Of a DNA stretch of 34,986 nt, positions 14,477 through 34,809 are shown piece after piece; within the stretch, counting starts at the first letter, position 1; each line of letters starts with the position of its first letter. The position numbers were made by a program, and so were the translations under genes. Origin of the DNA: Bacillota bacterium (GTDB lineage Bacteria; Bacillota; UBA5301; JASBVW01). The stretch spans positions 1 through 34,986 of the forward strand of contig JASBVW010000001.1 of the NCBI GenBank assembly GCA_029961005.1, written 5' to 3'. The notes under the pieces are model-generated. The model searched no databases, was not told the DNA's origin, and was given only the letters and a program-made list of their open reading frames with translations.

Positions 14477-14504
14477 CTTTCTGCCCTCCCCCAGGGCGGC
14501 CTCG

Positions 14505-14936
14505 CTACTTAAGCAGGGAGATGACCTCGTCAGTGATCTCCTCTCCGCCGTAGCGCACGCTCTCTTTAAACAAAACGGCCGTCAGCCTCCGGCGCCTGGC
14601 CACCTGCCTGACCGCCGCGTCCACCTCCCGGTTTAGCTTCTGCTCCAGCTGCTCCTTGAAGCGTTGATACTCGGCGTAGGCCGCCTCCCGCTTCCTCTGC
14701 AGCTCCTGCGGATCTTTTTCCTGCTTGAGAGCGGAGACCAGCTCCTCGTAACGCCGGTTCAACTGCTCCTGGTAGCGCTTGGCCCGAGCGCTTTCATTGA
14801 CGATCCGGCTGATGTCGATGACCCCCAGGCGCACCCGCTGAAAAGGCAGGTAGCCCAGGAGCCCTGCCAACAAAAGCACGGCCAGCACCGCCGTCGCAGC
14901 CGGCCACATCCACCTCTTCACTCCCGCGTTCTCCAT
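14505..14936 (-). CDS. skp: Skp/OmpH-family periplasmic chaperone, paralog 3 (closest to lpxD)
   Basis: 143 aa. A signal/anchor segment is followed by [13 protein letters not shown], a coiled-coil arm and the C-terminal [27 protein letters not shown]. All are typical of OmpH/Skp. Confidence 0.8.
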
Positions 14937-14967
14937 AAAACAGCCCTCTCTTGCCTCCAGAAGAGCT

Positions 14968-16053: not shown

Positions 16054-16081
16054 CCGACCTCAACCAAGTCTGCCGCGCAGC

Positions 16082-16564: not shown

Positions 16565-16616
16565 CGCTTCACTCCCCCAAAATTTTACTGACCGCCAACG
16601 GTACCATTATACGGCA

Positions 16617-17996: not shown

Positions 17997-18011
17997 TGAG
18001 GTTTACCCTCC

Positions 18012-19718: not shown

Positions 19719-19736
19719 GGGCTCTCCTCCTCAATT

Positions 19737-19759
19737 AAAAAAGATTGGCCGGGTCGGCC
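19737..19759 (-). terminator. Weak terminator-like hairpin with a U-tract just upstream of the bamA RBS
   Basis: The minus strand reads GGCCG-ACC-CGGCC followed by AATCTTTTTT. The stem is short (5 GC pairs), so confidence is low. Confidence 0.35.
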
Positions 19760-19796
19760 TGGCCCTGCCCTGTGGCGGGGCGAGCTCCCTGCCGGG

Positions 19797-20507: not shown

Positions 20508-20521
20508 CGCTCCACCCTCCT

Positions 20522-21172
20522 TTACACCCGTGCCAGATCAGGCAGCTCCCGAGCCAGCATGCCGCGCAGGCGCCGAATGGCCCTGCGCTGGAGCCGGTAG
20601 AGGTATGAGGTGGTAATGTTGAGCTGGGAAGCAATGCGGGAAGGCTCCTGCTCGGCTACATAGACGCCGTTGACCACCGCCTGCTCCTTCTCCGGCAGGC
20701 GATGCACCAGCCGGGCCAGGGTACGCCTGAGTTCCCACCTCTCCAACTGCTCCTGCGGCTCGGAGGTATAGCCCTCGCCGCCCACCGCCAGCTCGCCTGC
20801 CCAGGCCGGTGAAGACTCCTCCCAGGAGAGGGGAGCCGGTTCTCCGCGGACCTCCCGGAGGTAGTCCAGGATGTAGCCGCGGATCCACCGGCGGGCGTAG
20901 GCGCTAAACGGAACCCCGCGCCGGTGGTCAAACCGCTCCACCGCTTCAATCAGCCCGACAGTCCCTTCCTGGATCAGATCCAGCACAAAATGCTCTTCCA
21001 AGCCGTAGTTGCGGGACGCCACCAGCTTGAGCACCAGGGACTGATAGAACTCGATCAGGAGGCGCCGGGCCTCCAGGTCGCCCTCTTCTTTATAGCGCGA
21101 CCACAGCTCCTGCTCCTCCTCTGGAACCAGGGGCTTCACCTGTCGCAGCGCTTCTAGGTATTCCTTGAGCAT
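20522..21172 (-). CDS. Sigma-70 family RNA polymerase sigma factor, group 3 / FliA-SigF-like, with a short region 3
   Basis: Region 2 reads DLIQEGTVGLIEAVERFDHRRGVPFSAYARRWIRGYILDYLRE. The region 4 helix-turn-helix reads PSRIASQLNITTSYLYRLQRRAIRRLR. I prefer the ATG at 21172 (MLKEYLE). The ORF track starts at a GTG at 21256. Confidence 0.8.
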   Translation of the reverse strand: MLKEYLEALRQVKPLVPEEEQELWSRYKEEGDLEARRLLIEFYQSLVLKLVASRNYGLEEHFVLDLIQEGTVGLIEAVERFDHRRGVPFSAYARRWIRGYILDYLREVRGEPAPLSWEESSPAWAGELAVGGEGYTSEPQEQLERWELRRTLARLVHRLPEKEQAVVNGVYVAEQEPSRIASQLNITTSYLYRLQRRAIRRLRGMLARELPDLARV

Positions 21173-21262
21173 AAGCCCCACCGTTGGAGTTCTTCGACTG
21201 TTCCAGGGCAATTCCTTCCGCTCTCCCACAACAATTCGTGACAGAGCGGCCACCACTTGGGA

Positions 21263-24200
21263 TTAGAACCTGAGCTTGCCCTCCAAACCCAGCCAGACCT
21301 CACCCCGGCTGTCGAATCCGCTGGTGAAGACCACTCCCGGCTTCAAGCGGTATTCGAAGCGCAAGGACTCGTCTGGTTTTTCCAGGTTTAAACTGCGGCT
21401 GTAGGTGACGTACAGGTCGTCGACCAGGTACTTGCCGAACTGCATCTGCACCTGCTCCTCGGCAAAGCCCCGCTCCAGCCTGAATTCGTCCAACTGAAGC
21501 ACATCCCGCACCGCATGCTCCAACCCTTTAAAGACGGTGCCGCGGATCTCCTCATCCAGGAGGCTCAGCATCTCCTGGCCGGTGACCTCCCCCGCCTCGC
21601 CGCCCCGGAGCAGGCGGGAGATCCTCCCCGTCAGAGCCAACCGCTCCAGAATCTCCTCCTCCGAAAGCGGAGGGTCGGAAGAGAGCTGCAGGTCGAGCTC
21701 CGGCACCTGGCCGGAGATGCGCAAGCCGATGAGGGCATCCTCCGCCCTGGCCTGAGCCTTGACTTCCAGCTGAGGATTTATGCCGTGCAGCGAGGTAAAG
21801 ACCGCCGAACCCTCGCTCACCCGGAAGACGGTGCCCAAATAGACGATGACGCCGCGGGTGGCCTCCGCCCGCCCCGCTAGGGTGGGCTCCCTGAGGGTCC
21901 CGCCGATCTTCAGCCGGCCGTAGGCCCGCACATCCACGCTCTCGCCGCCCACGATCCGGACGTCGTCGGCATTGGTCAATTCCACGTCCAGAGCGGCGTC
22001 GAGCGGAGAGTGGCCCCCTCCCAGGTGGCCGCCCAGGTTAAGGGTGGTCCTGGCCAGCTGCACCCTTCCCTGCAAGAGAGGGAGGTTCGCCGGCCCGCGC
22101 AGGGAGAGATCGGCATCGATCAGGCCGTCCAGGAAGGAATCGGAGTAGTGCAGATCCTCGGCCTGGAGGTACAGGTCCACCTCCTGCACCGCCAGGCCTC
22201 TCAGGGTCAGGATGCCCCTCCCGGCAGCCGTACCCTCGTTTACCTGCGCGCTGGCGCGCTCGATCACCACCTGGTGGCCGCGGAAGAGCAGGCGCCCTTC
22301 CCCCTCCGCCACCGTAAAAGGAGGGGCGGAGAGAGAGAGCTGCTCGAACTGGAAAGCGCCGTAGACCCCCACCTCATCCCAAGGGCCGATTAGGCGCAGG
22401 TTCAGGGCACCGCGCCCCTCCTGAATGGCCTGGCGCCCCCAGGCCAAATTGAGGATCTTCAAGCTCCCCCGCGGCAGCGAGACGGTCAAATCCACCGGTG
22501 TAGCCGCCGCCCCGGCGGCGACGCTCAGGCGCTCCGCCAGTGCGGGGGGAAGAGGAATCCTCCCCTCCACCTGGAGGAGCTGGCCGTCCGCAGCCACCTG
22601 TAGCCCTTCCAGCTCCACCGCTCCCTCCGCCAGGCGCACCGTCCCCTCCGCGCGCTGGAAGGGGACCTCACCCATGCGCCCGTCCTCCAGGTCGAAGGAG
22701 CCCTCCAGGCAGGGGGAGACCGCCGACCCCGTGATCCTAGCCTGTCCGCTCAACTTCCCCTCGAGCGGGAAAGCAGGGTCCCACATCCTCAGCACGGACT
22801 CTACCGCAAAGGACTCTGCGGCGACGGAAAGATCCAGTGCGCCGGCGGTACTCCAAGTTCCGCGGGCCGAAAGGCTCCCTCCCCCCTTTTGCACCACTAA
22901 GAACCTCTCCAGGGAGACGCGCTCGCCCTCCATCTCCATAGCCAGGGCAGCGGTCAGGTCCCCTTCCCCCCGGCGCCCCTCCGCCGCCAGCAGGTTCACC
23001 CTCACCCGGGGGTGGGAGGCGCGCCCGGTCAGCCAGGCGGTGCCGTCGCAGAGCGCTTCCACCCCCGCCGGGGGCCGTTGATCGGCGATCTTGAGCAACT
23101 CCGAAAGCCTGGCTCGCCTGAACTCCACCTTGACTTCGAAGGCCGGGTCCGGCTGAAGGGCCAGCTCCCCATTCAGGGTGTACTCTTCCTGGCCCCGCTG
23201 GAGCCGCAGCCCGGTGAGGTACAAGCGCCCGCCTCTGTATTCCACCGGTCCGGCTGCGCGGTCCAAAAGATAGGGGCCCAGCACCAGGCTCTGGGCTTTG
23301 ACCTCCCCGCCCAGGTGAGGGTCTTTGAGCGTCCCCGAGAGGCGGCCGGTAAACTCCACCGTGCCCGCCGCCCGGCCCAGGCTGGCCGCCAGTTGCGGAA
23401 AAGCCGCCAGTTGGACCTGCTCTATCCGGAGGTCGATGGCCAGCTCCTCCCCCTGGATCGTGCCGCTGCCGTAGCCGCTGCCCAGGGGGCTTTCGATGGT
23501 AAAGGAATCCAGGAGAATTTCCCTCCCGCGCCCTTTGAACTGGATTTCGGCCCGCCGGAAGTCCTGGCCGGCCACCCGGCCTTTCGCTACCGACACCTTC
23601 CCCTCCAGAGCAGGCGCGGAGAGCGGGCCATGGAGGGCCACCTGCCCGTAGGCTTCCCCCTTGAGATCCCAGGAGACCCCGGCCAGGCGCAGGAGATCGG
23701 CTATCTCACCCCTTTCCACCTCCCCGGTCAGGCGAGCCACGGGCCCGGCCGCCTCGAAGAGCAGTTCCCCCTCCAGCCGGTAGGCGGAGCTTCCGTGCAG
23801 AATCGCCACCTGTTCCAGCTCCAGCCGGGGCCGCTGCCACCGGAGATAACCCTCGGCCCGTTCAAAGGTCCGATCCCGCCAGGCGGCTTCAGCGACCCCG
23901 AACCAGCCGGAGACCGCCGGGTCGGCCAGGGAACCCTCGACGCGCCCGTGAAAGCGCAGGCGCCCTCTCACCTCGCCGGCGCCCGCCCTGCCGCGCCACT
24001 CCTCCGGCAAAAGCGGCCAGAGCTCCGCCAGGTCGACCTGGCGGAGGTCCACCGCCAGCGCCAGCTCTCCCTCCGGGGAGACCTCGCCCGAAGCTACAGC
24101 CACAGCACCCCGCCGGAAGACTTTGAGCTCGTTGAAGTGCCAGACGCCCCCTGCCAGCATAAAGCCGGCCTCCAGCCGGTCTGCTTTCCAATTCCGGAAC

Positions 24201-24475
24201 GAAGGCCCTTGCACCGCCAGGTCTCCGGTGAGCCGGACCTGCTCTCGTCCCCACCCTCGCCCGGACCCGACCAGCCGGCCCTCCAGGAGCCCTTCGCACT
24301 GAGGAACCCCGGCCAGTCCGGCGTCCCGGAGGGCGCGGGAGAGGGTGGCCAGATCCACCCTCTGCACCCGGAGGACCCCCGCAAAGGCCCAGGGGTTCCC
24401 CCGGCCGCCCACCACCCCTTCCCCGGTGGCGTCACCGGCTGGGCCGCGGACGGCCAGGCGGCGGACGGTCCACAC
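21263..24475 (-). CDS. tamB: TamB-like translocation and assembly module protein, C-terminal 1070-aa portion (DUF490 end)
   Basis: Long repetitive beta-rich sequence. The C-terminal DUF490-like segment is QFGKYLVDDLYVTYSRSL...FEYRLKPGVVFTSGFDSRGEVWLGLEGKLRF, ending in Phe. This frame opens only 8 codons upstream of the nominal GTG at 24475. Confidence 0.8.
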   Translation of the reverse strand: MWTVRRLAVRGPAGDATGEGVVGGRGNPWAFAGVLRVQRVDLATLSRALRDAGLAGVPQCEGLLEGRLVGSGRGWGREQVRLTGDLAVQGPSFRNWKADRLEAGFMLAGGVWHFNELKVFRRGAVAVASGEVSPEGELALAVDLRQVDLAELWPLLPEEWRGRAGAGEVRGRLRFHGRVEGSLADPAVSGWFGVAEAAWRDRTFERAEGYLRWQRPRLELEQVAILHGSSAYRLEGELLFEAAGPVARLTGEVERGEIADLLRLAGVSWDLKGEAYGQVALHGPLSAPALEGKVSVAKGRVAGQDFRRAEIQFKGRGREILLDSFTIESPLGSGYGSGTIQGEELAIDLRIEQVQLAAFPQLAASLGRAAGTVEFTGRLSGTLKDPHLGGEVKAQSLVLGPYLLDRAAGPVEYRGGRLYLTGLRLQRGQEEYTLNGELALQPDPAFEVKVEFRRARLSELLKIADQRPPAGVEALCDGTAWLTGRASHPRVRVNLLAAEGRRGEGDLTAALAMEMEGERVSLERFLVVQKGGGSLSARGTWSTAGALDLSVAAESFAVESVLRMWDPAFPLEGKLSGQARITGSAVSPCLEGSFDLEDGRMGEVPFQRAEGTVRLAEGAVELEGLQVAADGQLLQVEGRIPLPPALAERLSVAAGAAATPVDLTVSLPRGSLKILNLAWGRQAIQEGRGALNLRLIGPWDEVGVYGAFQFEQLSLSAPPFTVAEGEGRLLFRGHQVVIERASAQVNEGTAAGRGILTLRGLAVQEVDLYLQAEDLHYSDSFLDGLIDADLSLRGPANLPLLQGRVQLARTTLNLGGHLGGGHSPLDAALDVELTNADDVRIVGGESVDVRAYGRLKIGGTLREPTLAGRAEATRGVIVYLGTVFRVSEGSAVFTSLHGINPQLEVKAQARAEDALIGLRISGQVPELDLQLSSDPPLSEEEILERLALTGRISRLLRGGEAGEVTGQEMLSLLDEEIRGTVFKGLEHAVRDVLQLDEFRLERGFAEEQVQMQFGKYLVDDLYVTYSRSLNLEKPDESLRFEYRLKPGVVFTSGFDSRGEVWLGLEGKLRF

Positions 24476-25698
24476 CCCGCATACTCGACCGCTGCCTCAG
24501 CCTGTCGCCAGGGCAGGCCGAAGAGCTCCCTTCCCTCCCAGGTCAGGGAGCCGCTAAGCACGAGATCGTCCACCGGCCCGCTCGCCAACCCGTGCAGAGT
24601 CAAGCGGCCGTCTGTCTTGCGCCAGCCGACCCGCAGCGCCTCAGGCCACTCTGGCCGCGGGAAGAGAGCTTGCACCGCCCTCGACCGCAAGGAGACCCCT
24701 GCCAGCTGCAGGCGCACCGCCAGGCGCGGGCGCTCCCAACCGGCCAGCTCTCCGCTCAGGCGGCCCTGGCCTTCCGCCCACCGGAAGCGCAGCCCCTTCG
24801 TGCTGATCTTTTCCCCGGCCACCTCCACCTGGCCGGTTAAATCTTCCAGGCGCACCCCCCGGTTCAGCGAGAGCGCCACCCCGTTCAGGCGGGCCAAACC
24901 GACCACCAGGGGTTGTTTAGGCTCCCCCTTCACCTCCACCTCCAGGTCGACGACGCCCCGGGGCTTCAGGCCGGACCACCATCCTCGCCACTGGGGCGGA
25001 AGAGGCAGGCGCTCCCCGGCGGACAGGTCGAGGGAGGGCAGGCGGAGGCGCAGGTCGAGGAGAGGCCGGGGCGCCGGGACGATCTTCCCCTCCAGGGCCC
25101 AGGGAGACTTCCCCTCCCGCCAGCGCCCCTCCAGCCAGGCTACGCGCCAGGAATGCCCGTCCAGCTGCATGCGGCCCCGTATCCCCTCTAGGTGCACGAC
25201 CTCCCCGCCTTCCCCGCTGAACGACGCCTTTCCTCGCAAAAGGTTGAGCCAAAGGCGCAGGTTACCCCTCCCGCCCGCCTCGGCCGAGAAGCGGGCGGAA
25301 AGTTGCGCTGCCTCCTGAGCCGAAAGGTTCAGTTCTGGATCCCATACGGAGATGTAGGTGAGAGCAGCCTCCGGGTGTCCGGGGTGAGTGAGCAGCCTCC
25401 ACAAGCTGTACCCCAGCTCCACCCGCGGCGCAGCAAAGAACGGCGGACGACCGGCTGCCGTCGAGCCCAGCGTGAGGTGGCGCAGCACCACGACCTGAAA
25501 GAGCCCGGGTTCTACCCCCTCTACCTTGACCGGCAGCCCTAAGGCCCGCGTGAGCTCGCGCGAGGCCAGGGCGGCCAGATCCATCCGGCTCTGCTCTCGA
25601 CTCGCCAGGCCAAGAAGGAGATGGGAGGCGGCAGCGAAGAAGAGGAAGGCCAGCCCCAGGAGGGACGCCGCCATGAAGATTCGCACCCTTGTTCGCAC
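24094..25698 (-). CDS. tamB: TamB-like N-terminal portion (membrane anchor plus about 400 aa); the 3' 380 nt look like out-of-frame read-through
   Basis: The GTG at 25698 follows GAGGAGG. The N-terminal TM is IFMAASLLGLAFLFFAAASHLL. The sequence looks like a real protein down to about 24479 (AEAAVEYAG), then turns W/G/S/P/R-rich while the overlapping frame (21263..24475) reads as a real protein. Confidence 0.7.
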   Translation of the reverse strand: MRTRVRIFMAASLLGLAFLFFAAASHLLLGLASREQSRMDLAALASRELTRALGLPVKVEGVEPGLFQVVVLRHLTLGSTAAGRPPFFAAPRVELGYSLWRLLTHPGHPEAALTYISVWDPELNLSAQEAAQLSARFSAEAGGRGNLRLWLNLLRGKASFSGEGGEVVHLEGIRGRMQLDGHSWRVAWLEGRWREGKSPWALEGKIVPAPRPLLDLRLRLPSLDLSAGERLPLPPQWRGWWSGLKPRGVVDLEVEVKGEPKQPLVVGLARLNGVALSLNRGVRLEDLTGQVEVAGEKISTKGLRFRWAEGQGRLSGELAGWERPRLAVRLQLAGVSLRSRAVQALFPRPEWPEALRVGWRKTDGRLTLHGLASGPVDDLVLSGSLTWEGRELFGLPWRQAEAAVEYAGCGPSAAWPSAAQPVTPPGKGWWAAGGTPGPLRGSSGCRGWIWPPSPAPSGTPDWPGFLSAKGSWRAGWSGPGEGGDESRSGSPETWRCKGLRSGIGKQTGWRPALCWQGASGTSTSSKSSGGVLWL

Positions 25699-25813: not shown

Positions 25814-27826
25814 TCACCGCTTGAGCGGCCGGGCGCCGGGCCCGGAGTTTTCGGGCCAGGGAGTGATGGTCAAATCGAACTGTTCCAGACCTTCAATGTA
25901 GTAGGGCGTAGAGACCAGGGCCTTGACGGGAGGGAGCTCCCCCTGAACCCCCGGCTCGGCCTCCCCGTTCCCAGTGGGGGCGGGAGCCCGCTCCGGTTTG
26001 GCAGGCGGCAGCGGTGGCCCTGCCGTCAGGGCTCTCTTCTCTCCCCCTTCCGCCACCCCTTCCTCCAACAGCCCCTCTTCTCCCGGCACCAGAGGGACAA
26101 ACTCCGCAATCAGGTCGCTGTTCTTCTCCCGCCGCACAAAGTCGTCGATCAGTTTGCCCAGGCTCTCATAGCTGGTCCTGGTGCGCTCTTCCTCTTTCTT
26201 CTCTTTCTCCGGCTGTTTCTTTTCGCCTTTCTTCTCCGGCCCTTGATGAGAAGGGGTGAGAGGGGGCAGCTCCTCCCCGTACCCCAGATCCGCCCCGCCG
26301 CGGACGGTGACCGTAACCGTTCCCGGGGGCGTGCTCAGGGGAACATCCAACCTCAGGGTCTGCTTGACCGGCTCCTGCCGGTAAGGCCGCAGAAGGACGG
26401 TCAGCTCCACCGACTCTCCCGGGTGGATCTCCTTCCGCGCCGGGATGACCTTCTCGATGCGGGCCGTATTTCTGCTCTCGCTGACCTCCACCGTGAGGGA
26501 GACGTTCTTGACCCGTACAGACTGGAATTCGTTGTTCAAGACCATATCCAGCCCTTCCATGAACTCGCCCAGGCTGAGGGCGGCAATATCGAAGTCGCTG
26601 TAAAAGATGTTCTCCCTGGTAAAGCCCCCCTGAGGCAGGCCTTCCCCCTCCACCTGAAACCGCACCCGGGCAGTCCCCCGCCCGATGCGATCAAATCCCA
26701 GGTCCAGGGCCTGCAAGGCGGCCGAACCCAAAAGGTCCAGGGACAGCTGCTCGTCCTGGATCACTTCTACGTACAGGTCGCTCTGTCTCTGGCGGTCGCG
26801 GTCCACCACCCTGACGTGGACCGGAATGGCCAGGGGGCGCCGGCCCAACACCCCTGCCACCCCTTTCGCGCGGTCTTGTGTCACCGTCCCCACCAGATTC
26901 AGCGAGGTGCCAATCTTAAAGGGCATACCCAGGCTGGGAACGGCCAGGTGGATGTAGGCGCGGGTGGCGAAGAAATTGGCCGCCCCCCGGCTCATGAAGG
27001 GATGGCCAAAGGCCAGGAAGCGATCGCCTTCCACGTAGGTCACCGTCCCCAAGGCAGTGACCTCCACGTCGCCGCGCACCAGCTGCAGTCCGATGGCGCT
27101 TCCCGGCTGCAGCCTCTCCCCGCCAGCTCCCGGGTCGGGGCTCTTTCCACCGCCTTGTGGCAGCCCCCCTCCTCCGTTCAGGGGAATGACTTGCAGGTTA
27201 TAAGGGGCCAGCACGCGGCGCAGCCGCTCCAAAGCCCGAGCATTCAGGCCGCTGACCAGGACAGGCGTGGCTACGGGAACCATGGTCAGGGTATCGGGGC
27301 GCGGGGTCACCGCCTCCCCTGCTGCGACAAAGGACACGCCGGTCACGGTCCGCCCGTCCAGGGCCAAAGGCTCCGTCAGCGGCAGATAGGTTTCCTGGCG
27401 GACCAGTTCCAGGACCTGGAGCATATCAGCGATGGGGGTGACGAAGCCGATGCGGTGGTCGGTGTAATCAAAGGCAAAAGAAAGCGCCCCCACCAGGCGG
27501 CCGTCGATGTAGACCGGGCTGCCGCTCATTCCGGCGGCAATGCCCCCGGCCTCATCGATGAGGGGACCGCTGACGCGCACCAGGATGAGGTCCCCCGCCG
27601 GCCCGGGAGCGGTGACGACTCCCAGGACCTCTACGTCAAAGTTCTCCACCGCGGTGCCGTGCAGCACCGTCTTCCCTATACCCCGGGCTCCTTTTTGCAC
27701 CTGTGCCACCGGAAGAAAAGCCGAAGCCGGAGCCGCCTCCCCGCTCTCGGTCGGCCATAAAATGAGCAGGGTCAGCACAACGGCGCCTACCAGCGCTCCC
27801 CGCAGGGAGAAAAGCCCTCTCTTCAC
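25814..27826 (-). CDS. Secreted peptidase S55 (SpoIVB-family) domain protein, non-canonical long form
   Basis: 670 aa with a signal peptide. The N-terminal protease-like segment contains GIAAGMSGSPVYIDGRLVGALSFAF, which is the S55 / chymotrypsin-fold serine motif. A Lys/Glu-rich linker (KKGEKKQPEKEKKEEE) lies near the C-terminus. It lacks the PDZ-first architecture of true SpoIVB. Confidence 0.55.
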   Translation of the reverse strand: MKRGLFSLRGALVGAVVLTLLILWPTESGEAAPASAFLPVAQVQKGARGIGKTVLHGTAVENFDVEVLGVVTAPGPAGDLILVRVSGPLIDEAGGIAAGMSGSPVYIDGRLVGALSFAFDYTDHRIGFVTPIADMLQVLELVRQETYLPLTEPLALDGRTVTGVSFVAAGEAVTPRPDTLTMVPVATPVLVSGLNARALERLRRVLAPYNLQVIPLNGGGGLPQGGGKSPDPGAGGERLQPGSAIGLQLVRGDVEVTALGTVTYVEGDRFLAFGHPFMSRGAANFFATRAYIHLAVPSLGMPFKIGTSLNLVGTVTQDRAKGVAGVLGRRPLAIPVHVRVVDRDRQRQSDLYVEVIQDEQLSLDLLGSAALQALDLGFDRIGRGTARVRFQVEGEGLPQGGFTRENIFYSDFDIAALSLGEFMEGLDMVLNNEFQSVRVKNVSLTVEVSESRNTARIEKVIPARKEIHPGESVELTVLLRPYRQEPVKQTLRLDVPLSTPPGTVTVTVRGGADLGYGEELPPLTPSHQGPEKKGEKKQPEKEKKEEERTRTSYESLGKLIDDFVRREKNSDLIAEFVPLVPGEEGLLEEGVAEGGEKRALTAGPPLPPAKPERAPAPTGNGEAEPGVQGELPPVKALVSTPYYIEGLEQFDLTITPWPENSGPGARPLKR

Positions 27827-27841
27827 TCTTACCGCTTCCTT

Positions 27842-29680
27842 TCATGGCTGGGCAAAGAAGAGGATCGCGTTGCTGACCGCCCGCTCCCGCCCATCGGAGG
27901 GCAGGTTAAAGACGCGGTCGCGGATGACCAGGGCGGTCGACCCTCCCCCATCCAGATTCATCGCCTCCACAGCCCCCAAATCCCTGAGCAACCACGCCAG
28001 CTCGGCCAGGGTCATGCCTACGCTAATTCCCGGCCGTCGGCCGCTGACCACCGCGAAGATGACCTTCCCTTCGGGGGTCAGGCCGATCCCCGTCCGGGGC
28101 GCCCGGCCCACCGCCACATCGGGCCGGAACTCTTCTTCTTCCGCGGTGATGTGCACCTCTCCCTGCTGGAGAAGCCGCGGGCCGCCGCCCACCGCCTGCC
28201 TGATCCCCAGTGCCCGCCAGTCCGGCTCCGTGGCCGGATCCACCGCCACCACATCCCCCGGCCGCACCCCCGCCAGGGCATCCCGGGCAGCCCCGTGGGC
28301 AGAGAGGACAAACCCGCCCCGGGGAATGGGAGCGTTGCCACCCTCCACTACCGCCGAGACCCTCCCCTCCTCCACCACGTACTCCCTGCCGGCGCTGTTG
28401 GTTCTGGTGGAGCTACCAAAAGCGGGCGTATAGAGGATGAGCTCATCCTTGCCCCGCCAGCGGTTGATCCCGTGGAGAGGCAACTCCCGCCCGGCTACCG
28501 TCACCCGGCCGCAAAAGTTCAGGTTCAGGATCAGGGGGGTCCCCTCTTCTGTCAGGGCGAAGACCGTCCGGTTGCGGATGGGCTCGCTCAGCATCTCCCC
28601 GTCAATGATCACCGCCCCCAGGGTGTCGCCGGTGTAATGGAAGTACCCGCCGTTCACCCCGGCGATGGCCCCGTAGCGCCGGGCCAGGGAGCTGACCGTC
28701 TCGGTGCCGCTGAATCCCTCCCGGGCCAAGACCGGCTTAAGGGTTAGCCCCGGCTCCCGCAGGTCGGCTTCCAGGATGTCAGCGATGATGGGGCCGGCCA
28801 CCGACAGCCGCTTGATGCGGCGGTAGACGAGCCCGGGCACCACCGTGGTGGCCAGCCGCTCTTCCACGTAGAGCGGCAACTCCACCACCAGGCGGCGCAG
28901 GGAGGGCTCACCCCGCACCCGGAAGCCGAAGAACGCCCCCTTCAGCTCAATATTTATGCGCCCCTCGTCCCCCACCTGCTGAAACGAAACGCCGTCCACC
29001 AGGGGAGAGCGGCCGTCGTCCCTGAAGTCGGGCAGCGCCCCCACGTAAGATCGGGGGAGCCTGACCACCAGGCGCCGCCCCGGCCTGTCTTCCGTCACTT
29101 CGCACTCCACGGGAGAAGTCCCCTGGATTAGCACGGCGGCCTTTTCCTGATCGCTCCGCACCTCTACCGCGGTGATGAGGTTAAACTCCCGCCCCGGCTG
29201 GGCCACGGCCACCACGCGGTGCTCCTTGTCTACTGCTACCATCCAGTTCAGCCAGCGGAGGACGGGTACCGCCGGCACCAGGATGCCCATCCCTTCCCGG
29301 ACCACCGGCGCCCTCTCGGCCCAAACCCTGCCCCGGTCGTCTTCCATCCGACCCGCCGCCAGGTTTACGGTCAGGCGCCCTTCCCCCTCCCCTCCCAGGA
29401 AAGAAAGCCGGTCCGAGCCAGGCTCATAAAGCAAACCCCGGCCCGTCAGCTCCGCCAGGGCCAGGGCCGGCAACAGCACCTCTTCCCCTTGCCAAACTCC
29501 CAGCAGAGAAGGGGAGGGTTTCCCGTTCAAGACCAGCCGGACTTCCTGCAGACCCGCCGCACCCCCGGCTCCGGGCGCCACCGCCGCTCCCACCGCCGCC
29601 CCCGGCGGAAAAAGGAGAAGAAAGACCACGGCGCCCGCCAGGGCTCGGGAAAGGCCTGCCTTTTTACTTCTCCCCTGCAC
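27842..29680 (-). CDS. Secreted multidomain protein: copper-amine-oxidase-N-like stalk, AMIN-like domain and phosphodiester glycosidase (DUF2233/NAGPA-like) domain
   Basis: The C-terminal half has GVNGGYFHYTGDTLGAVIIDGE, GGGPRLLQQGE, PRTGIGLTPEGKVIFAVVSGR and AMNLDGGGSTALV, typical of phosphodiester glycosidases. The middle segment AVEVRSDQEKAAVLIQG...RRLVVRLP...RRLVVELP is AMIN-like. I prefer the GTG at 29680 (AGGAG 6 nt upstream, followed by a signal peptide). The ORF-track start at 29974 lies inside the flgJ-like gene. Confidence 0.7.
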   Translation of the reverse strand: MQGRSKKAGLSRALAGAVVFLLLFPPGAAVGAAVAPGAGGAAGLQEVRLVLNGKPSPSLLGVWQGEEVLLPALALAELTGRGLLYEPGSDRLSFLGGEGEGRLTVNLAAGRMEDDRGRVWAERAPVVREGMGILVPAVPVLRWLNWMVAVDKEHRVVAVAQPGREFNLITAVEVRSDQEKAAVLIQGTSPVECEVTEDRPGRRLVVRLPRSYVGALPDFRDDGRSPLVDGVSFQQVGDEGRINIELKGAFFGFRVRGEPSLRRLVVELPLYVEERLATTVVPGLVYRRIKRLSVAGPIIADILEADLREPGLTLKPVLAREGFSGTETVSSLARRYGAIAGVNGGYFHYTGDTLGAVIIDGEMLSEPIRNRTVFALTEEGTPLILNLNFCGRVTVAGRELPLHGINRWRGKDELILYTPAFGSSTRTNSAGREYVVEEGRVSAVVEGGNAPIPRGGFVLSAHGAARDALAGVRPGDVVAVDPATEPDWRALGIRQAVGGGPRLLQQGEVHITAEEEEFRPDVAVGRAPRTGIGLTPEGKVIFAVVSGRRPGISVGMTLAELAWLLRDLGAVEAMNLDGGGSTALVIRDRVFNLPSDGRERAVSNAILFFAQP

Positions 29681-30065
29681 CTTCTTCTCCTGCCCCTTCC
29701 CTCGGCTGCCGAGAAGTACCAGTGCCACCCAAGACCAGCTGGCGCTCCAGAGCCGCAGCCAGGCCCAAACCGCCTGCCTCGGCCATGCGGCGGGAGAACT
29801 CGTCATCCAGCATCTCCTCAAAGATCTCGTCAGCCAACGTGCGCGGCAGGAGATCAGAGCGAGGCACTGTCTTCCGCATGGCCTTCCAGAGCTGGGCGAT
29901 AAACAGCGCCTCCATCTCTCGAGCGGCGGCGCGCAAAGCTTCCGCATCCGACTCGGAAGTGCCGCGGGGGACATCCCCCGCCGGCACCTGGCGCCAGCGG
30001 GAGCGCAAAAGGTCCAGGTCCACCGGGTTCTTCATCCATCCGCTCTCGATCTCCACTTCATCCAT
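29664..30065 (-). CDS. flgJ: Flagellar rod-binding protein (FlgJ N-terminal-domain type, no muramidase domain)
   Basis: 133 aa. AAAREMEALFIAQLWKAMRKT and DEIFEEMLDDEFSRRMAE match the Rod-binding domain pattern. The gene sits immediately downstream of flgI. Confidence 0.7.
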   Translation of the reverse strand: MDEVEIESGWMKNPVDLDLLRSRWRQVPAGDVPRGTSESDAEALRAAAREMEALFIAQLWKAMRKTVPRSDLLPRTLADEIFEEMLDDEFSRRMAEAGGLGLAAALERQLVLGGTGTSRQPREGAGEEGAGEK

Positions 30066-30085: not shown

Positions 30086-31246
30086 TTATTGAATAATCAA
30101 CTCTCCGTGCAGGGCCCCCGCCGCCTTGATGGCCTGCAGGATGGCGATGATGTCCCGCGGCGTGGCCCCCACGCCGTTCAGAGCGTCCACCAGGTCCTGT
30201 ACCGCCACCGGAGAAGGCAGGACGACCATGTGCCCCTGTCCCTCCTCCGCCGTAATCTCAGCCCCCGGGGTGACGACCGTCTCGCCTCCGGAGAACGGCG
30301 GAGGCTGCGACACCTCCGGCCGGGAGACGATACGCACGCTCAGGTTGCCCTGGGCCACGGCCACCGTGGAGAGCCGCACCTGATGGCCCACCACAATGGT
30401 CCCGGTCCGCTCGTTGACCACGATCCGCGCCACCCCGTCCGGGCGCACGGGCAGCTCCTCCAGGGCAGCGATGAAGCTCACCGGCTCTTCCCGGTAGGCC
30501 GCCGGCAGGACCACCTCTACGGTGCTCTTGTCCACCGCCCGCGCCGTCTGGGGGGTAAAGGTGCGGTTGATCACCTCCGCCACCCGGGCAGCGGTGGTGA
30601 AATCCGGTTCCCGCAGCACTAAAGTCACCCGGTCCTGGGTCGCCAGCTCCGCCGGCACCTCCACCTCCACGGTGGCCCCTCCCGGCACGATGCCCACGGT
30701 GGGATGGTTCTTCTCCACCGCTGCACCGCCGCGGCGCACGTTAAACCCCCCGATGGAGACGGGTCCCTGGGCCACCGCGTAGACCCGTCCGTCCGCCCCG
30801 CGGAGGGGAGTCAAAAGCAGGACGCCCCCCTGCAGGCTCTTGGCATCGCCCAGGGAGGAGACGAGCACGTCAATCCGGTCCCCGTTCCGGGCAAAAGGCG
30901 GCAGTTCCGCGGTCACGGTCACCGCCGCCACGTTGCGCACCCGCAGCCGTTCCGGAGGAACGGTCACCCCAAAATTCCGGAGCATGTTGGCCACCATTTG
31001 GACGTTGGCCAAAGACGTACTGGAATCTCCCGTCCCTTCCAGGCCGGTCACCAACCCCAGCCCCGTGAGCTGGTTGGGGCGGTCGCCCAGAATGCGCGCT
31101 ATATCCTTGATGCGCACCGCGGGGTCATCGGCGGGGGCAGCCTGCGCCGCAGCTCCCAGCAGCCCGCCCAGGGCCAGGACCCAGAGCATCAAAATGGCCA
31201 GGCGCTTACGCCTGCACATCAACTTCTGCCGGCACACGGGCCTCAC
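30086..31246 (-). CDS. flgI: Flagellar P-ring protein FlgI
   Basis: After a signal peptide come VRIKDIARILGDRPNQLTGLGLVTGLEGTGDS, GGVLLLTPLRGADGRVYAVAQGPVSIGGF and the C-terminal DLVDALNGVGATPRDIIAILQAIKAAGALHGELIIQ. The start could instead be the ATG at 31219. Confidence 0.93.
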   Translation of the reverse strand: MRPVCRQKLMCRRKRLAILMLWVLALGGLLGAAAQAAPADDPAVRIKDIARILGDRPNQLTGLGLVTGLEGTGDSSTSLANVQMVANMLRNFGVTVPPERLRVRNVAAVTVTAELPPFARNGDRIDVLVSSLGDAKSLQGGVLLLTPLRGADGRVYAVAQGPVSIGGFNVRRGGAAVEKNHPTVGIVPGGATVEVEVPAELATQDRVTLVLREPDFTTAARVAEVINRTFTPQTARAVDKSTVEVVLPAAYREEPVSFIAALEELPVRPDGVARIVVNERTGTIVVGHQVRLSTVAVAQGNLSVRIVSRPEVSQPPPFSGGETVVTPGAEITAEEGQGHMVVLPSPVAVQDLVDALNGVGATPRDIIAILQAIKAAGALHGELIIQ

Positions 31247-31249
31247 CCC

Positions 31250-31861
31250 TCAAAAGAGCCAATTAAAGATGCGAGTCAAGATGCCGGGCTCCTGCTTGGC
31301 GCCCAGCGGCCCCTCGCCTTGATAGGTGATGCGGGCATCGGCCACATAAGTGGAAAGAACGGTATTCTCCGCGGTGATATCTTCCGGACGCACCAGCCCG
31401 GAGACCACTATCTTTTGCTTCTCCCCGTTCACCACGATCTCCTGTCGCCCCTCCACCACCAGGGTGCCGTTGGGGAGAACTTCTTTGACCATCACCGTAA
31501 GGCGGGCGCTCAGGCTGCCCCCCCGCACCGTGGTCCCGGAAGCGTCGAACTTATCTCCCCCCTCTGCCTTTAGATAAGGGAGGAGATCAGACAGGGCCCC
31601 CAGACCCGGCCCCACGCCCACCTCCGCCTCCTTGCCGGCCTTGGTGGAGGCGTTTTGCGTCGCCTGGGTGCGTTCTACGATGATGATGGTCAAAAGGTCG
31701 CCCTCTCGGGAGGCCCGTCGGTCGGCAAAAAGGTTGACCGGCTCTCGGGCCTGAGCCCAAAGCGAGGTAGCCCCGGCCGCTTCCACCCAAAACAGGACCA
31801 GCCACAGACTTCCCAGCGCCATCTTCCAAAACCAGCGCTTGCGCACGAGCCAGCCGGTCAT
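31250..31861 (-). CDS. flgH: Flagellar L-ring protein FlgH, with no lipobox cysteine
   Basis: 203 aa starting at ATG 31861, with GGAGG 7-8 nt upstream. Motifs LFADRRASREGDLLTIIIVE, GGSLSARLTVMVKEVLPNGTLVVEGRQEIVVNGEKQKIVVSGLVRPEDI and VADARITYQG are present. The ORF-track extension to 32455 overlaps flgA and is Gly/Ala/Pro/Arg-rich junk. Confidence 0.9.
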   Translation of the reverse strand: MTGWLVRKRWFWKMALGSLWLVLFWVEAAGATSLWAQAREPVNLFADRRASREGDLLTIIIVERTQATQNASTKAGKEAEVGVGPGLGALSDLLPYLKAEGGDKFDASGTTVRGGSLSARLTVMVKEVLPNGTLVVEGRQEIVVNGEKQKIVVSGLVRPEDITAENTVLSTYVADARITYQGEGPLGAKQEPGILTRIFNWLF

Positions 31862-31875
31862 CTCCGGTCCCTCCT

Positions 31876-32907
31876 TCACCTCAACACTTCCACTTCCCGG
31901 GGCCCCACCACCCGGCCCTGCAGGATCTTGCCCGAGTCTACATTCTGCACCCGGATGACCTGCCCCTGCCCCCCATCCTCCAGGGCCCTGCCCACTGCCG
32001 TAACGACCACGCCCCGCTGCCGCACGGTCAGCACCACTTCCGTTCCCTTCTCCACCACAGGCACGGGCTCTACCGCGCTTAGGCGCAGGACCTCGCCCGC
32101 CCGCACCGAGCGCACCAGGCGTTGGCCGAGCAGGTCCTCCTGGGTCCAGGCCACATCGGCCGGCAGGCCTTTCAAGGCCAGAACCTGAACAGACAGGTCC
32201 TCCCGGGCCAGGACGCGGCGGGGCGGAAGATCGGCGGCTGCCACCACCACCGCCCCCCGGGCCAGGACCTCCAGCCGGGGGCGAAAAGAGGCGACCACCC
32301 TTCCCTCCACCAGGGCGCGCACGGTTGGCTGCAGCACCCCGGCGGAGAAAGCCCGCCTCAGCTCCTGCGGCGAGGCCTCCAGCTCCCAAGCCAGCTCCCC
32401 CTCCGGGATGCGCAGAGAAGAAGGCCAGGAGAGAACCTTTGCCTCCAGCTGCCACTCCGGGGAAGGAAGGCGGCGGCGCAATAAGGAGAATAAGACGGGC
32501 TCCGCCTCCCGGGCGGTGAGGATGCGCCCTGCCGTCCTCACGGTCACCGCCTCCGGCCCCGACCAGACCAAGCGCTCCTCGGGATACCCGGCCCCCCGCA
32601 GGCGCACCAGTACGGTGGCCCGGCTGAGCTGCCGCTCCGCCCCCGGCAGAGCGGCCTGCCCCAAGATGAGGCGGGTCAGGGCAGCCCTCTCCTCCTCACT
32701 TCCCCCTTCCAGGTCGGCTACCTCCCCCAAAGAAATCTGGGGTCCTCTGACTTCGGCGGAGTGGAGCGTAATGACAATGGTCTCCCCGGCCGCTCTCCCA
32801 ACCGCCGGCGGCAGCCCGGCAGAAGCGGCCCACAGGCCGGCCAGCGCCAGAGCCAGCGCCAGCCAGGCCCGTCCGGGCCTATTCCTGTGCGACCCACCCA
32901 TCTTCAT
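31876..32907 (-). CDS. flgA: Flagellar P-ring assembly chaperone FlgA (long form)
   Basis: Signal peptide. The C-terminal SAF/ChapFlgA pattern reads LGQRLVRSVRAGEVLRLSAVEPVPVVEKGTEVVLTVRQRGVVVTAVGRALEDGGQGQVIRVQNVDSGKILQGRVVGPREVEV. Confidence 0.8.
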   Translation of the reverse strand: MKMGGSHRNRPGRAWLALALALAGLWAASAGLPPAVGRAAGETIVITLHSAEVRGPQISLGEVADLEGGSEEERAALTRLILGQAALPGAERQLSRATVLVRLRGAGYPEERLVWSGPEAVTVRTAGRILTAREAEPVLFSLLRRRLPSPEWQLEAKVLSWPSSLRIPEGELAWELEASPQELRRAFSAGVLQPTVRALVEGRVVASFRPRLEVLARGAVVVAAADLPPRRVLAREDLSVQVLALKGLPADVAWTQEDLLGQRLVRSVRAGEVLRLSAVEPVPVVEKGTEVVLTVRQRGVVVTAVGRALEDGGQGQVIRVQNVDSGKILQGRVVGPREVEVLR

Positions 32908-32954
32908 CCGCCCCTCTGGACCCTCCGGGCTCTTTCCCGCTCCCTGCTCAGGCT

Positions 32955-33743
32955 CTACCGCCGCAGGTTATTGGCCAGCTGCAGCATCTCATCGGAGGCC
33001 TGAATGGCCTTGGCATTAACCTCGTAGGCCCGCTGGGCCACGATCATGTTCACCATCTCTTCCACTACCTGAACGTTGGACATCTCCAGGTAGCCCTGGG
33101 CGATGGTTCCGAACCCGTCCAGGCCCGGCGTCCCGTCGATGGGCTCTCCCGAGGCAGGGGTGGCCCGCAAGAGGTTGCGCCCTTCAGAGCTGAGCCCGGC
33201 CGGATTGATGAAGCGCGTGAGCTGGATCTGCCCGATCTCCTGGGGCTCGTTCTGCCCGGGGAGCATGACCGTCACCGTGCCGTCGGTGCCCACGGAGATG
33301 TGCGTCGCCTCGGGCGGGATGATGATCTCCGGTTCCAGCGGGAAACCATCAGAGGTCACGATGCGCCCCTCTGCATCCACCTTAAAGGACCCATCCCGGG
33401 TGTAGGCGACCTCGCCATCCGGCATGAGGATGCGGAAGAAACCGTCCCCCTCGATCACCATGTCCAGGGGGTTGTCCGAGGGGCGCACATCGCCTTCGGT
33501 GAAGATCTTCTGGGTGGCCACCGGGCGGACGCCATGGCCCAGCTGAATGCCGGTGGGAATCATCAGGCCCCGCACGGCCGGAGTTCCCGCCGCCCGATAG
33601 GTCTGGTACAAAAGGTCCTGAAAGTCCACGCGGCTCTTCTTGAACCCCACGGTATTTACGTTGGCCAGGTTGTTGGAGATGACGTCGATCATGAGCTGCT
33701 GCGCCTTCATCCCCGACCCGGCCGTCCACAACGCCGGCATCAT
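32955..33743 (-). CDS. flgG: Flagellar distal rod protein FlgG
   Basis: The N-terminus reads [29 protein letters not shown]. The C-terminus reads [45 protein letters not shown]. Confidence 0.93.
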
Positions 33744-33943
33744 GGTAAAACAAAACCCCCTTTGGCCAAAAGTCGCTGCGGCAGGGGGCTAGGTCCTGTG
33801 AGGAACGTTCAGCCTGCGGCTGGGTTGCCTCCGTCGCTCAGCAACCCCGGGCCTCCGCGGCCGCCAGACCGCCGGTCCAGCCCTCGTGTGCCGTTCCCTT
33901 GCCGTCCTTCCCCTCGCCGTCTTTCTCTCGTTCTCAGCAGGAC
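33744..33943 (-). promoter_or_regulatory. Structured 200-nt spacer between two rod genes, with a hairpin plus U-tract abutting the flgG start
   Basis: On the minus strand CCCCCT...AGGGGG (33756-33788) is followed by TTTTGTTTT and then ACC-ATG. A second hairpin is GGGTTGC-12 nt-GCAACCC (33822-33847). This is by far the longest gap within the flagellar module and among the largest in the window. Confidence 0.3.
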
Positions 33944-34729
33944 TTAGCCGACACGCCCCACTTCGTTGACCGCCTTGCCCAGCAGCTGATCCTGGGTCAG
34001 GACCATCTTCTGGTTGGCTTCGTAGGCGCGCGTGGCGGCAATCAAGTCGATCATCTCCTGGATGGAATTGACGTTGGACCGCTCCAGCACGCCCTGGCGC
34101 ACCTCCGCCTCCGCCGGCTGCGGCGCTCCCGCAGCGGCAGTGGCCCGGTACAAGCTGTCGCCCTCCTTCACCAGGCCAGCCGGTTCGGGAAAATCCACGA
34201 CCTGGAGGGTATCGACGTAGGCCCCGTCCACCAGGACCTCGCCCTCTGCCGTGATCTGAATCTTGCTCCCGCTCACCGCCACCGGCCCGTTGAGGCCCAG
34301 GACTCGCGCCCCTTCGGACGTAACCAGATACCCCTCGCTGTCCAAGGCCAGGGAGCCGTTGCGGGTGTAGCGCAGCCCGCCCCGCTCTTCCACGACCAAA
34401 AAGCCCCGCCCCACCAGGGCTACATCCAGAGGGTTATCGGTCACCACCAACTGGCCCTGCGTAAAATCGGTGGCCGTGCCCTGCACAGCCGCTCCCACGC
34501 CCACCCAGCCCACCGGCGGGCGGAGATCGACCGGCGGCCAGGGCACCAAGGGCATCTGTTGAACGGGATCGTCCAGCCGGTGCAGGAGCAACTGAGGAAA
34601 GGCTTCCGTTAAGAGGGAGTCGCGCTTGAAACCGGTGGTATTGACGTTGGCCAAATTATTGGCGATGACGTCGGTGCGCGTCTTCTCCAACAGCATACCG
34701 GAGGCAGCTGTATAAAGACCCCGCAGCAC
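33944..34729 (-). CDS. flgF: Flagellar basal-body rod protein (FlgF/FlgG family, proximal rod)
   Basis: The N-terminus reads [36 protein letters not shown]. The C-terminus reads QGVLERSNVNSIQEMIDLIAATRAYEANQKMV. I prefer the GTG at 34729, which has AAGGAGGTG 6 nt upstream. The ORF-track start is 34765. Confidence 0.8.
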   Translation of the reverse strand: MLRGLYTAASGMLLEKTRTDVIANNLANVNTTGFKRDSLLTEAFPQLLLHRLDDPVQQMPLVPWPPVDLRPPVGWVGVGAAVQGTATDFTQGQLVVTDNPLDVALVGRGFLVVEERGGLRYTRNGSLALDSEGYLVTSEGARVLGLNGPVAVSGSKIQITAEGEVLVDGAYVDTLQVVDFPEPAGLVKEGDSLYRATAAAGAPQPAEAEVRQGVLERSNVNSIQEMIDLIAATRAYEANQKMVLTQDQLLGKAVNEVGRVG

Positions 34730-34809
34730 AGAGTTCACCTCCTTCGCATGAGTTATCGGCATCACCCGCCGGTTGCTTAAGCGACCCCCGGCTGGTTTGC
34801 TCTGGCGAG

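Follow-up and report, generated by a model that had tools for sequence, protein, structure and literature searches.

A 34,986-nucleotide contig (JASBVW010000001.1) of a Bacillota metagenome-assembled genome (MAG; assembly GCA_029961005.1, 1.76 Mb, 86% complete) was analyzed in its entirety and is referred to here as the window. All of the window genes lie on the minus strand. At positions 25,814 to 30,065, a flgJ-like flagellar gene is followed by a gene for a putative secreted phosphodiester glycosidase with an AMIN-like domain (the AMIN/NAGPA gene) and by a gene for a secreted protein related to the S55 peptidase SpoIVB (the S55-like gene, written S55L in gene orders; L and G numbers denote the loci and genomes of the comparison sets). 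The best reading of these three genes is that they lie at a junction inside an ancestral envelope locus of two-membraned (diderm) Firmicutes. With a probability of roughly 60%, the glycosidase and the S55-like protein are a conserved periplasmic pair that belongs to the outer membrane (OM) biogenesis block (mla/tamB/bamA) and serves general envelope maintenance, not the flagellum. On this reading, the pair is coupled to the last flagellar ring/rod gene here because the ancestral locus places the two modules side by side.

A working mechanism can be proposed for the pair. The glycosidase would dock on peptidoglycan through its AMIN domain, a peptidoglycan-targeting domain, and would cleave phosphodiester links of the GlcNAc-alpha-1-phosphate type, by which secondary wall polymers are attached to MurNAc. 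The S55-like protein is predicted to be an active Ser-His-Asp protease of circularly permuted fold; in association with the OM and BamA, it would process or degrade periplasmic or OM proteins. Maintenance or remodeling of the zone that separates wall and OM may be the joint task of the two enzymes. The three genes are as follows.

29664..30065, minus strand: flgJ-like gene, last gene of the flgF-flgG-flgA-flgH-flgI-flgJ module
27842..29680, minus strand: AMIN/NAGPA gene, 612 aa, GTG start at 29680
25814..27826, minus strand: S55-like protease gene, 670 aa, GTG start at 27826; orthologue of Veillonella parvula Vpar_0521

Linkage and co-occurrence of the pair

The S55-like family tracks Omp85 better than it tracks FlgI. 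Among 31 relatives, a full-length S55-like gene was present in exactly the 16 genomes that carry Omp85. In a sample of 151 genomes from the phylum, with S55-like genes called at an E value of ≤1e-40, 32 genomes had both the S55-like gene and Omp85, none had the S55-like gene only, 2 had Omp85 only, and 117 had neither; the corresponding counts for FlgI were 28, 4, 4, and 115. The bamA gene lay on the same contig and within about 11 kb of the S55-like gene in 26 of the 32 positive genomes, and flgI lay within 5 kb in 15 of them. Where flgI was on another contig, the S55-like gene was still beside bamA in 12 of 13 such genomes, a count limited by contig breaks. Family f36 (G041, G086, and G126) and G043 had FlgI and no S55-like match at this threshold. 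G041 and G086 also carry Omp85. The missing match in these four genomes reflects loss, strong divergence, or incompleteness.

Gene order was compared across loci. The order flgFGAHIJ-(NAGPA)-S55L-tamB-(sigma-x)-bamA recurred in 14 loci from relatives, and flgJ was directly followed by the S55-like gene, with or without an intervening NAGPA gene, at 21 flagellated diderm-Firmicute loci and in 15 of the 32 S55-like-positive genomes of the phylum sample. The linkage to flgJ, on which a preliminary description of this DNA had built a flagellar proposal, is therefore not unique to this genome. The NAGPA gene was missing between flgJ and the S55-like gene at four loci (L017, L018, L022, and L024), and no NAGPA domain was found anywhere in the genomes G004, G007, and G009, all of which have FlgI and Omp85. 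At L020 and L021 (G011 and G028), the (NAGPA-)S55L-tamB-bamA block stood without upstream flg genes; direct inspection of G011, G020, and G028 placed flgFGAHIJ on another contig, where it was followed by flgM/flgN/flgK/flgL or by unrelated genes. In G020 (L019), the surroundings of the S55-like gene yielded neither tamB nor bamA. The NAGPA-S55L pair also occurred without flg genes in nonmotile Veillonella and Phascolarctobacterium, in Riflebacteria, and in Wallbacteria. For 72 loci, 4.5 kb or more of sequence was available upstream; of these, 15 had both NAGPA and flg neighbors, 16 had NAGPA only, 6 had flg only, and 35 had neither.

In Negativicutes, the order was murA-mreB-NAGPA-small ORF-S55L-mlaE-mlaF-mlaD-tolC-tamB-sigma. 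The small ORF (~100 aa) is conserved between the NAGPA and S55-like genes (L057:9665-9949, L043:4587-4898, and 21 other loci), gave weak biotin-lipoyl, HlyD barrel-sandwich, and M23-like matches, and has no counterpart in the window. In Atribacterota, Halanaerobiaceae, and Negativicutes (L046, L048, L082, L049, L055, and the Negativicutes loci), murA and mreB/mbl stood immediately upstream of the (NAGPA-)S55-like genes. This second recurrent neighborhood connects the pair with genes for wall synthesis.

The family extends well beyond flagellated Firmicutes. A word-index search with the S55-like protein returned more than 4,000 matches, with full-length matches at 35 to 50% identity that included Limnochorda pilosa, Sporomusa, and Thermosinus, and an exhaustive phmmer search returned 6,329 representatives, 2,082 of them at an E value of ≤1e-30. 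Eighty named loci were examined. Those of Firmicutes came from Limnochordia, Halanaerobiales (Halanaerobiaceae), and Negativicutes, the last including the nonmotile, nonsporulating V. parvula, Dialister, Megasphaera, and Phascolarctobacterium. The others came from Atribacterota, Riflebacteria, Wallbacteria, Acetothermia, Synergistaceae, Armatimonadota, Planctomycetota/Brocadiales, Thermotogota, Obscuribacterales, Aminicenantes, Latescibacterota, and Acidobacteriota. In Armatimonadota and others (L084 to L086, L092, and L102), the S55-like protein was 1,200 to 1,600 aa long and fused to a beta-propeller and Big_13 immunoglobulin-like (Ig) domains; in Planctomycetota, Acidobacteriota, and Latescibacterota (L089, L096 to L101, and L104), the next gene encoded the same propeller-plus-Ig protein (~746 aa). 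Fusion and adjacency make this a Rosetta-stone link, which points to no function.

Orthologues of the pair have been encountered at the protein level. V. parvula is nonmotile and nonsporulating, and its locus (L057) identified Vpar_0519 and Vpar_0521 as orthologues of the window pair. Each of three V. parvula OM preparations contained both Vpar_0519, a DUF2233 protein, and Vpar_0521, which has a SpoIVB domain at its N terminus; Vpar_0521 was singled out as a conserved unknown of diderm Firmicutes (PMC5491611). In Acetonema longum, the S55-domain protein F7NM31 was one of two proteins that coeluted with BamA, with 3 peptides (PMC13018214). The accessions F7NM31 to F7NM22 fit the order S55L-mlaE-F-D-tolC-tamB-sigma-sonB-bamA-sonA.

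The window itself is a conserved OM gene cluster of diderm Firmicutes in which flgFGAHIJ, tamB, bamA, skp, and lpx are colocalized; its order is flgFGAHIJ-NAGPA-S55L-tamB-sigma-x-bamA-sonA-skp-lpxD...lpxC-fabZ-lpxA-lpxI-lpxB-msbA. This order agrees with the published OM gene cluster of diderm Firmicutes, which has been described as including a six-gene flgF-G-A-H-I-J cluster (Antunes 2016, PMC5007114). The flanking genes are listed below; the flg context upstream of the flgJ-like gene spans 30086..34765.

34765-33944, minus strand: flgF-like gene, upstream context
33743-32955, minus strand: flgG, upstream context
32907-31876, minus strand: flgA, upstream context
about 31870-31250, minus strand: flgH, upstream context
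31246-30086, minus strand: flgI, directly upstream of the flgJ-like gene
21263..25698, minus strand: tamB (PF04357, 2e-43, on the second ORF)
within 169..21256, minus strand: sigma factor, single-pass membrane protein, bamA, SonA-like, skp genes, and lpxD, downstream context
within 169..21256, minus strand: ABC module, lpxC, fabZ, lpxA, lpxI, lpxB, and msbA-like gene, downstream context

As first described, tamB follows the S55-like gene; it begins 115 nt past the end of that gene. Its coding sequence is broken into two frames that overlap (25698-24094 and 24475-21263), and the tamB genes of relatives are single ORFs of 1,064 to 2,718 aa. The split, with its overlap at 24094-24475, stems either from a frameshift introduced during assembly of the MAG or from a genuine disruption. 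At the contig end (34766-34986, minus strand), upstream of the flgF-like gene, lies a protein C terminus ending in ...EVEIRSGLREGDEVIVEDREVPRLVDGTPIYTISRQDG*, which resembles the C-terminal barrel of an HlyD/RND adaptor and not the mreB/mbl found upstream in many relatives. A promoter and terminator scan of the intergenic gaps yielded nothing usable.

Architecture of the glycosidase and the protease

The start codon GTG 29680 of the AMIN/NAGPA gene has an AGGAG 6 nt upstream and overlaps the end of flgJ (TAA 29666-29664) by 17 nt, an arrangement noted in the preliminary description and confirmed in the DNA. The public gene call begins at GTG 29728 (628 aa), and flgJ is overlapped with either start; GTG 29680 was favored because of its signal-peptide-like N terminus and ribosome-binding site. 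The 17-nt overlap was not conserved, since the first possible start of the next gene lay 7 to 250 nt past the flgJ stop codon in 21 of 23 related loci. The N terminus of the product is a standard signal peptide (MQGRSKKAGLSRALAGAVVFLLLF...), and the protein contains the following features.

29576..29680, minus strand: signal peptide, ~aa 1 to 35, from sequence; low pLDDT in the structural model
28874..29182, minus strand: AMIN-like beta-sandwich domain, aa 167 to 269, from a subthreshold Pfam match and Foldseek
27845..28870, minus strand: beta-rich region and NAGPA catalytic domain, aa 271 to 612 (PF09992, 1.6e-44)
27938-27952, minus strand: catalytic DGGGS motif, D577 to S581, from sequence

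The preliminary description of a secreted protein with AMIN-like and DUF2233/NAGPA domains held up. The NAGPA/DUF2233 assignment (PF09992) scored 152.5 bits against a cutoff of 25. The AMIN match (PF11741) was below threshold by sequence (E = 0.003; 18.1 bits against a Pfam cutoff of 20.5), whereas the model (pLDDT 89) supports an AMIN fold: Foldseek matched the region of ~aa 167 to 269 to PilQ B2/AMIN (4aqz; TMt 0.57) and AmiC (4bin), both with a probability of 1.0. One homologue carries a precomputed PF11741 match. The NAGPA domain aligned with a probability of 1.0 to NAGPA, 3ohg, and 5h3k. Slr0280 (5h3k) was the PDB match by sequence (E = 2.9e-26) and was also recovered by Foldseek (E = 5e-34 over 582 columns), as were BPSS2145 (6ozd), vertebrate NAGPA, and BACOVA_00430 (3ohg). 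Slr0280 and BPSS2145 aligned over about 570 to 580 columns and therefore share much of the multidomain architecture.

The DGGGS motif was at least 90% conserved among 32 NAGPA orthologues adjoining S55-like genes; these were drawn from loci because a word-index search with the NAGPA protein gave only 16 matches. In human NAGPA, DGGGS/D286 is essential, and the chemistry of the enzyme is cleavage of GlcNAc-1-phosphodiesters, not of glycan strands or peptide cross-links (PMC13474241). The bond cut by NAGPA is the GlcNAc C1-O bond in GlcNAc-alpha-1-P-6-Man. An analogous bacterial bond occurs in the GlcNAc-alpha-1-P-6-MurNAc linkage unit, which is made by the LCP ligases that attach wall polymers. 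By this analogy, linkages of the GlcNAc-alpha-1-P-6-MurNAc type may be the substrates of the window glycosidase. An LCP ligase and a CsaB-type pyruvyl transferase were found in this genome and in nearly all relatives, so the predicted substrate class is plausible; being nearly universal, these genes do not discriminate by their correlation with NAGPA presence. G028 was the only one of the 31 relatives without an LCP (LytR_cpsA_psr) ligase and is one of four diderms without any NAGPA domain, a single case that may be coincidence.

The S55-like gene starts at GTG 27826, 15 nt after the TGA (27844-27842) of the AMIN/NAGPA gene and not 16 nt as first described. Its product has the size (670 aa), signal peptide, and GMSGSP motif (aa 99 to 104) noted at the outset. 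Membership in the SpoIVB (S55) family, also part of the preliminary description, was borne out for the GMSGSP barrel, which is homologous to that of SpoIVB, and requires revision in other respects: half of the profile matched, no PDZ domain was found, and the order of the barrels is reversed. Peptidase_S55 (PF05580) matched with an E value of 2.9e-12 over profile positions 116 to 210 of 210, that is, its C-terminal half, right after the signal peptide. Pfam gave no PDZ match in the protein, no NCBIfam model covers the family, and the SpoIVB equivalog (TIGR02860) scored 45.3 bits against a cutoff of 305. The features of the protein are listed below.

27419..27706, minus strand: Ser-bearing beta-barrel, aa 41 to 136, homologous to the SpoIVB C-terminal barrel
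27515-27532, minus strand: GMSGSP with Ser101 and Ser103, from sequence
26810..27100, minus strand: second beta-barrel, aa 243 to 339, putative equivalent of the His-bearing N-terminal barrel of SpoIVB
27002-27004, minus strand: His275, invariant
26873-26875, minus strand: Asp318, invariant

Alignment of the family to 20 true SpoIVB sequences with hhalign placed aa 33 to 143 on the C-terminal Ser-bearing barrel (probability 99.4%, E = 3.7e-21), and the PDB match of this barrel was SpoIVB (9lnf; E = 3.7e-8). Residues 243 to 339 aligned weakly with the N-terminal barrel of SpoIVB (positions 214 to 324; E = 0.0028, probability 11%). In this second alignment, His275 (motif FGHPF) fell on the catalytic His of SpoIVB GALGH, and Asp318 (motif QDR) fell on a SpoIVB Asn. 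Ser101 was present in all 233 ungapped homologues, and His275, Asp318, and Arg319 were present in 235 of 235; Lys304 and Asp253 were found in 234 and 226 of these 235 homologues, respectively. The His-bearing part lies ~140 aa downstream of the Ser-bearing match, the opposite of the usual S55 order (His barrel and then Ser barrel). SpoIVB was not among the PDB sequences found with a hidden Markov model (HMM) of the His-bearing region, and the proposed permutation therefore draws on hhalign, the invariant residues, and the predicted strands.

The AlphaFold model of the protein (pLDDT 79, pTM 0.76) comprised a barrel with a terminal helix (48 to 140), a six-stranded unit (244 to 327) with a pLDDT above 90, beta-sandwich and helix modules up to ~510, and charged disordered linkers. 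In a Foldseek search with the whole model, the matches to SpoIVB (9lnf; 114 columns at a probability of 1.0) and to proteases of the chymotrypsin fold each spanned roughly one half of the domain, as expected from a sequence-order-dependent aligner on a permuted fold; no match was found for the C-terminal modules. In the SpoIVB crystal structure, His236 and Ser378 are close and Asp363 is 24 Å away (PMC12502668). The position of Asp363 is an invariant Gly (Gly87) in the S55-like protein, and Asp318 would occupy the position of chymotrypsin Asp102. On balance, the S55-like protein is quite probably a circularly permuted, active Ser-His-Asp protease.

Alternative roles for the pair

Several points weigh against assigning the pair to OM biogenesis. 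Outside Firmicutes, the S55-like gene was not beside tamB or bamA. Flagella and OM co-occur in most diderms of the phylum, and the two associations are separated by 8 versus 2 discordant genomes. Across 14 model genomes, PF05580 was found in Bacillus subtilis only, with Escherichia coli, Caulobacter, Synechococcus, Thermus, Deinococcus, Bacteroides, and Thermotoga maritima negative; given its absence from those diderms and from two Omp85-positive genomes of the phylum, the family is not a universal part of OM biogenesis. Limnochordia and Sporomusaceae-type Negativicutes have the flgJ-(NAGPA)-S55L adjacency in common, and this conserved adjacency, tightened to an overlap here, fits some shared use. 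The profile-profile alignment behind the proposed permutation is weak (E = 0.003, probability 11%), and the substrates named for both proteins are putative. The A. longum coelution consisted of 3 peptides, and its authors did not treat F7NM31 as a real partner (PMC13018214); the identification of F7NM31 as an S55-like orthologue is our reading of accession order.

An alternative proposed in the preliminary description is that the single-domain FlgJ recruits the AMIN/NAGPA protein, and perhaps the S55-like protein, as the wall-opening partner for the rod and the P- and L-rings. Single-domain FlgJ proteins are known to operate with separate wall enzymes (SltF of Rhodobacter sphaeroides and PleA of Caulobacter), and these partners are lytic transglycosylases. 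The 133-aa FlgJ-like protein here does consist of a rod-binding domain only, as originally noted: its sole Pfam match was Rod-binding (PF10135) at aa 61 to 109 (nt 29739-29885; E = 3e-14; 53.7 bits against a gathering cutoff of 25.1), and NCBIfam FlgJ models matched in the N-terminal part only. The gene is placed after flgI in the flgFGAHI(J) cluster, as for single-domain FlgJ, and the FlgJ orthologues at 23 loci were all short (103 to 207 aa). A Glucosaminidase domain (PF01832) was found neither in this protein nor anywhere in the 86%-complete assembly, nor was one found in most relatives. The lack of a hydrolase domain favors a recruited enzyme, as do the overlap with the AMIN/NAGPA gene, the direct succession of flgJ and the (NAGPA-)S55-like genes at the 21 loci and in the 15 phylum genomes, the binding of peptidoglycan by AMIN domains, and the remoteness from flagellar genes of the two SLT-domain genes of this MAG, both of which lie in housekeeping contexts.

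The comparative data speak against such a recruitment. Flagellar genes do not accompany the pair in Veillonella, Phascolarctobacterium, Riflebacteria, and Wallbacteria, and the pair keeps to tamB-bamA where the flg cluster is elsewhere. The flagellated genomes G004, G007, and G009 lack NAGPA, other FlgI-positive genomes lack an S55-like match, and the flgJ overlap is not conserved. NAGPA chemistry is directed at GlcNAc-1-phosphodiesters and not at glycan strands or cross-links (PMC13474241), and small SLT lytic transglycosylases, the conventional candidates, were present in every relative examined. This survey of SLT and Glucosaminidase domains neither identifies nor excludes a FlgJ partner. 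Overall, a primary function of the pair in opening the wall for rod and rings appears unlikely, and the second option of the preliminary description, a role for OM machinery, is better supported. From the 17-nt overlap and the 15-nt spacer, the two proteins are expected to be produced along with the ring proteins here, so a helper role in rod and ring passage is possible, but it is not the defining function of the pair.

The S55-like protein may instead be a site-1 signaling protease that cuts the periplasmic part of the single-pass membrane protein next to the sigma factor and thereby induces OM biogenesis genes. Precedents are SpoIVB, which cleaves SpoIVFA, and DegS, which cleaves RseA. The homology to SpoIVB is in line with such a role, and a sigma-70-family gene and a gene for a single-pass membrane protein lie between tamB and bamA in the window, an arrangement shared by many loci of Limnochordia, Negativicutes, and Halanaerobiaceae. 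However, the cluster lacks a sigma gene at many Firmicute loci with the S55-like gene (L011/L025, L016, L018, L020, L024, L026, and L027; also L032, L035, L037, L044, L045, L050, and L078), none of the non-Firmicute loci has one, and the pairing with NAGPA is left unexplained. Signaling toward the sigma/anti-sigma pair of the cluster is a reasonable minority view to which we assign a low probability.

A broader proposal, to which we give similarly little weight, is that the two proteins are an ancient two-enzyme "tether-cutting" module of nonproteobacterial diderms from which SpoIVB was derived. Local detachment of peptidoglycan-linked polymers (at the GlcNAc-1-P-MurNAc linkage) and of protein tethers would then allow TamB/Mla bridges, Bam substrates, and, where present, flagellar rods and rings to cross the wall. 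A periplasmic S55-like enzyme would have given rise to the sporulation protein SpoIVB once its fold was permuted again and a PDZ domain was added.

The neighborhood may also reflect inherited gene order only, with the two enzymes linked functionally neither to each other nor to the flanking modules and with the protease-like protein acting as a noncatalytic structural or adaptor protein. The large syntenic blocks of Firmicutes (murA-mbl-flg...) are old and partly historical, and NAGPA is dispensable in several lineages, both of which agree with this explanation. Conversely, the Ser, His, and Asp residues are invariant over 235 sequences at 30 to 50% identity, and the NAGPA-S55L pairing recurs in distant phyla with an otherwise different context. 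We regard this explanation as slightly less probable still.

The host is probably a spore former. Relatives carry a separate canonical SpoIVB of ~450 aa, and in this MAG the canonical SpoIVB gene appears to be split between two contigs, at C7:3540-4025 (Pfam positions 49 to 210) and C258:6129-6278 (positions 2 to 51), which fits a spore-forming lineage. An S55-family protease in a sporulating diderm, which the preliminary description considered notable, loses its significance with this separate true SpoIVB and with the wide occurrence of S55-like proteins in nonsporulating phyla. A further idea is that diderm spore formers use the S55-like protein, as a SpoIVB paralogue acting in sporulation or germination, to remodel the outer spore membrane into the OM. 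This idea could draw on the S55 homology, the true SpoIVB of this probable spore former, and the germination setting of the A. longum study. It is largely refuted by the distribution of the family in nonsporulating Veillonella, Dialister, and Megasphaera and in Planctomycetota, Acidobacteriota, and others, by its detection in OM fractions of vegetative V. parvula, and by the separate SpoIVB of relatives, and we consider it very improbable.

Significance and comparison with known systems

OM biogenesis outside Proteobacteria proceeds without many of the classical parts (BamB to BamE, TamA, Lol, and MlaA/C), and Vpar_0521 has already been named a priority unknown by researchers of two-membraned Firmicutes. 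The pair has been noticed in the literature but is uncharacterized. New relative to the literature searched are the permuted catalytic architecture, the recurrent pairing with AMIN-NAGPA across phyla, and the quantitative evidence for bamA/tamB over flgI. The present analysis adds that Vpar_0521-type proteins are probably active permuted S55 proteases, often paired with a peptidoglycan-targeted phosphodiester glycosidase, and that the family reaches far beyond Firmicutes and follows bamA/tamB rather than flagella. The result is a concrete hypothesis that is testable in the genetically tractable V. parvula; it disposes of an attractive link to flagellar assembly that lacks support, and it offers a candidate evolutionary source for SpoIVB.

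Compared with known FlgJ systems, the FlgJ of the window resembles those of the SltF and PleA systems in having the rod-binding domain alone. Unlike in those systems, flgJ adjoins a gene for a phosphodiester glycosidase, a linkage that does not hold up in the comparative data, and unlike the bifunctional FlgJ of beta- and gammaproteobacteria, the protein has no C-terminal glucosaminidase/muramidase domain. The AMIN/NAGPA protein shares its catalytic fold and DGGGS motif with the NAGPA "uncovering enzyme," BACOVA_00430 (3ohg), Slr0280 (5h3k), and BPSS2145 (6ozd). It differs from them in its AMIN-like domain, in a further beta domain at the N terminus, and in the location of its gene in an OM/flagellar locus.

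The closest published counterparts are Vpar_0519 and Vpar_0521, which are full-length orthologues encoded in the order NAGPA-(small ORF)-S55L upstream of mlaEFD-tolC-tamB in V. parvula. The window pair, in contrast, stands directly after flgJ (with an overlap) and directly before tamB, with neither the small ORF nor intervening mla genes. The published description of Vpar_0521 includes neither a permuted protease nor a distribution outside Firmicutes. The S55-like protein resembles B. subtilis SpoIVB (MEROPS S55; 9lnf) in its Ser-bearing GMSGSP barrel, which is clearly homologous, in a His of a GH motif that aligns with the catalytic His236, and in predicted secretion into an intermembrane or periplasmic space. 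Unlike SpoIVB, it has no PDZ domain, its barrel order is reversed (Ser101 ... His275), and it has an invariant Asp318 where SpoIVB has Asn and Gly87 where SpoIVB has Asp363. It also has ~330 extra C-terminal residues, with beta-sandwich modules and charged linkers, and its family extends to nonsporulators.

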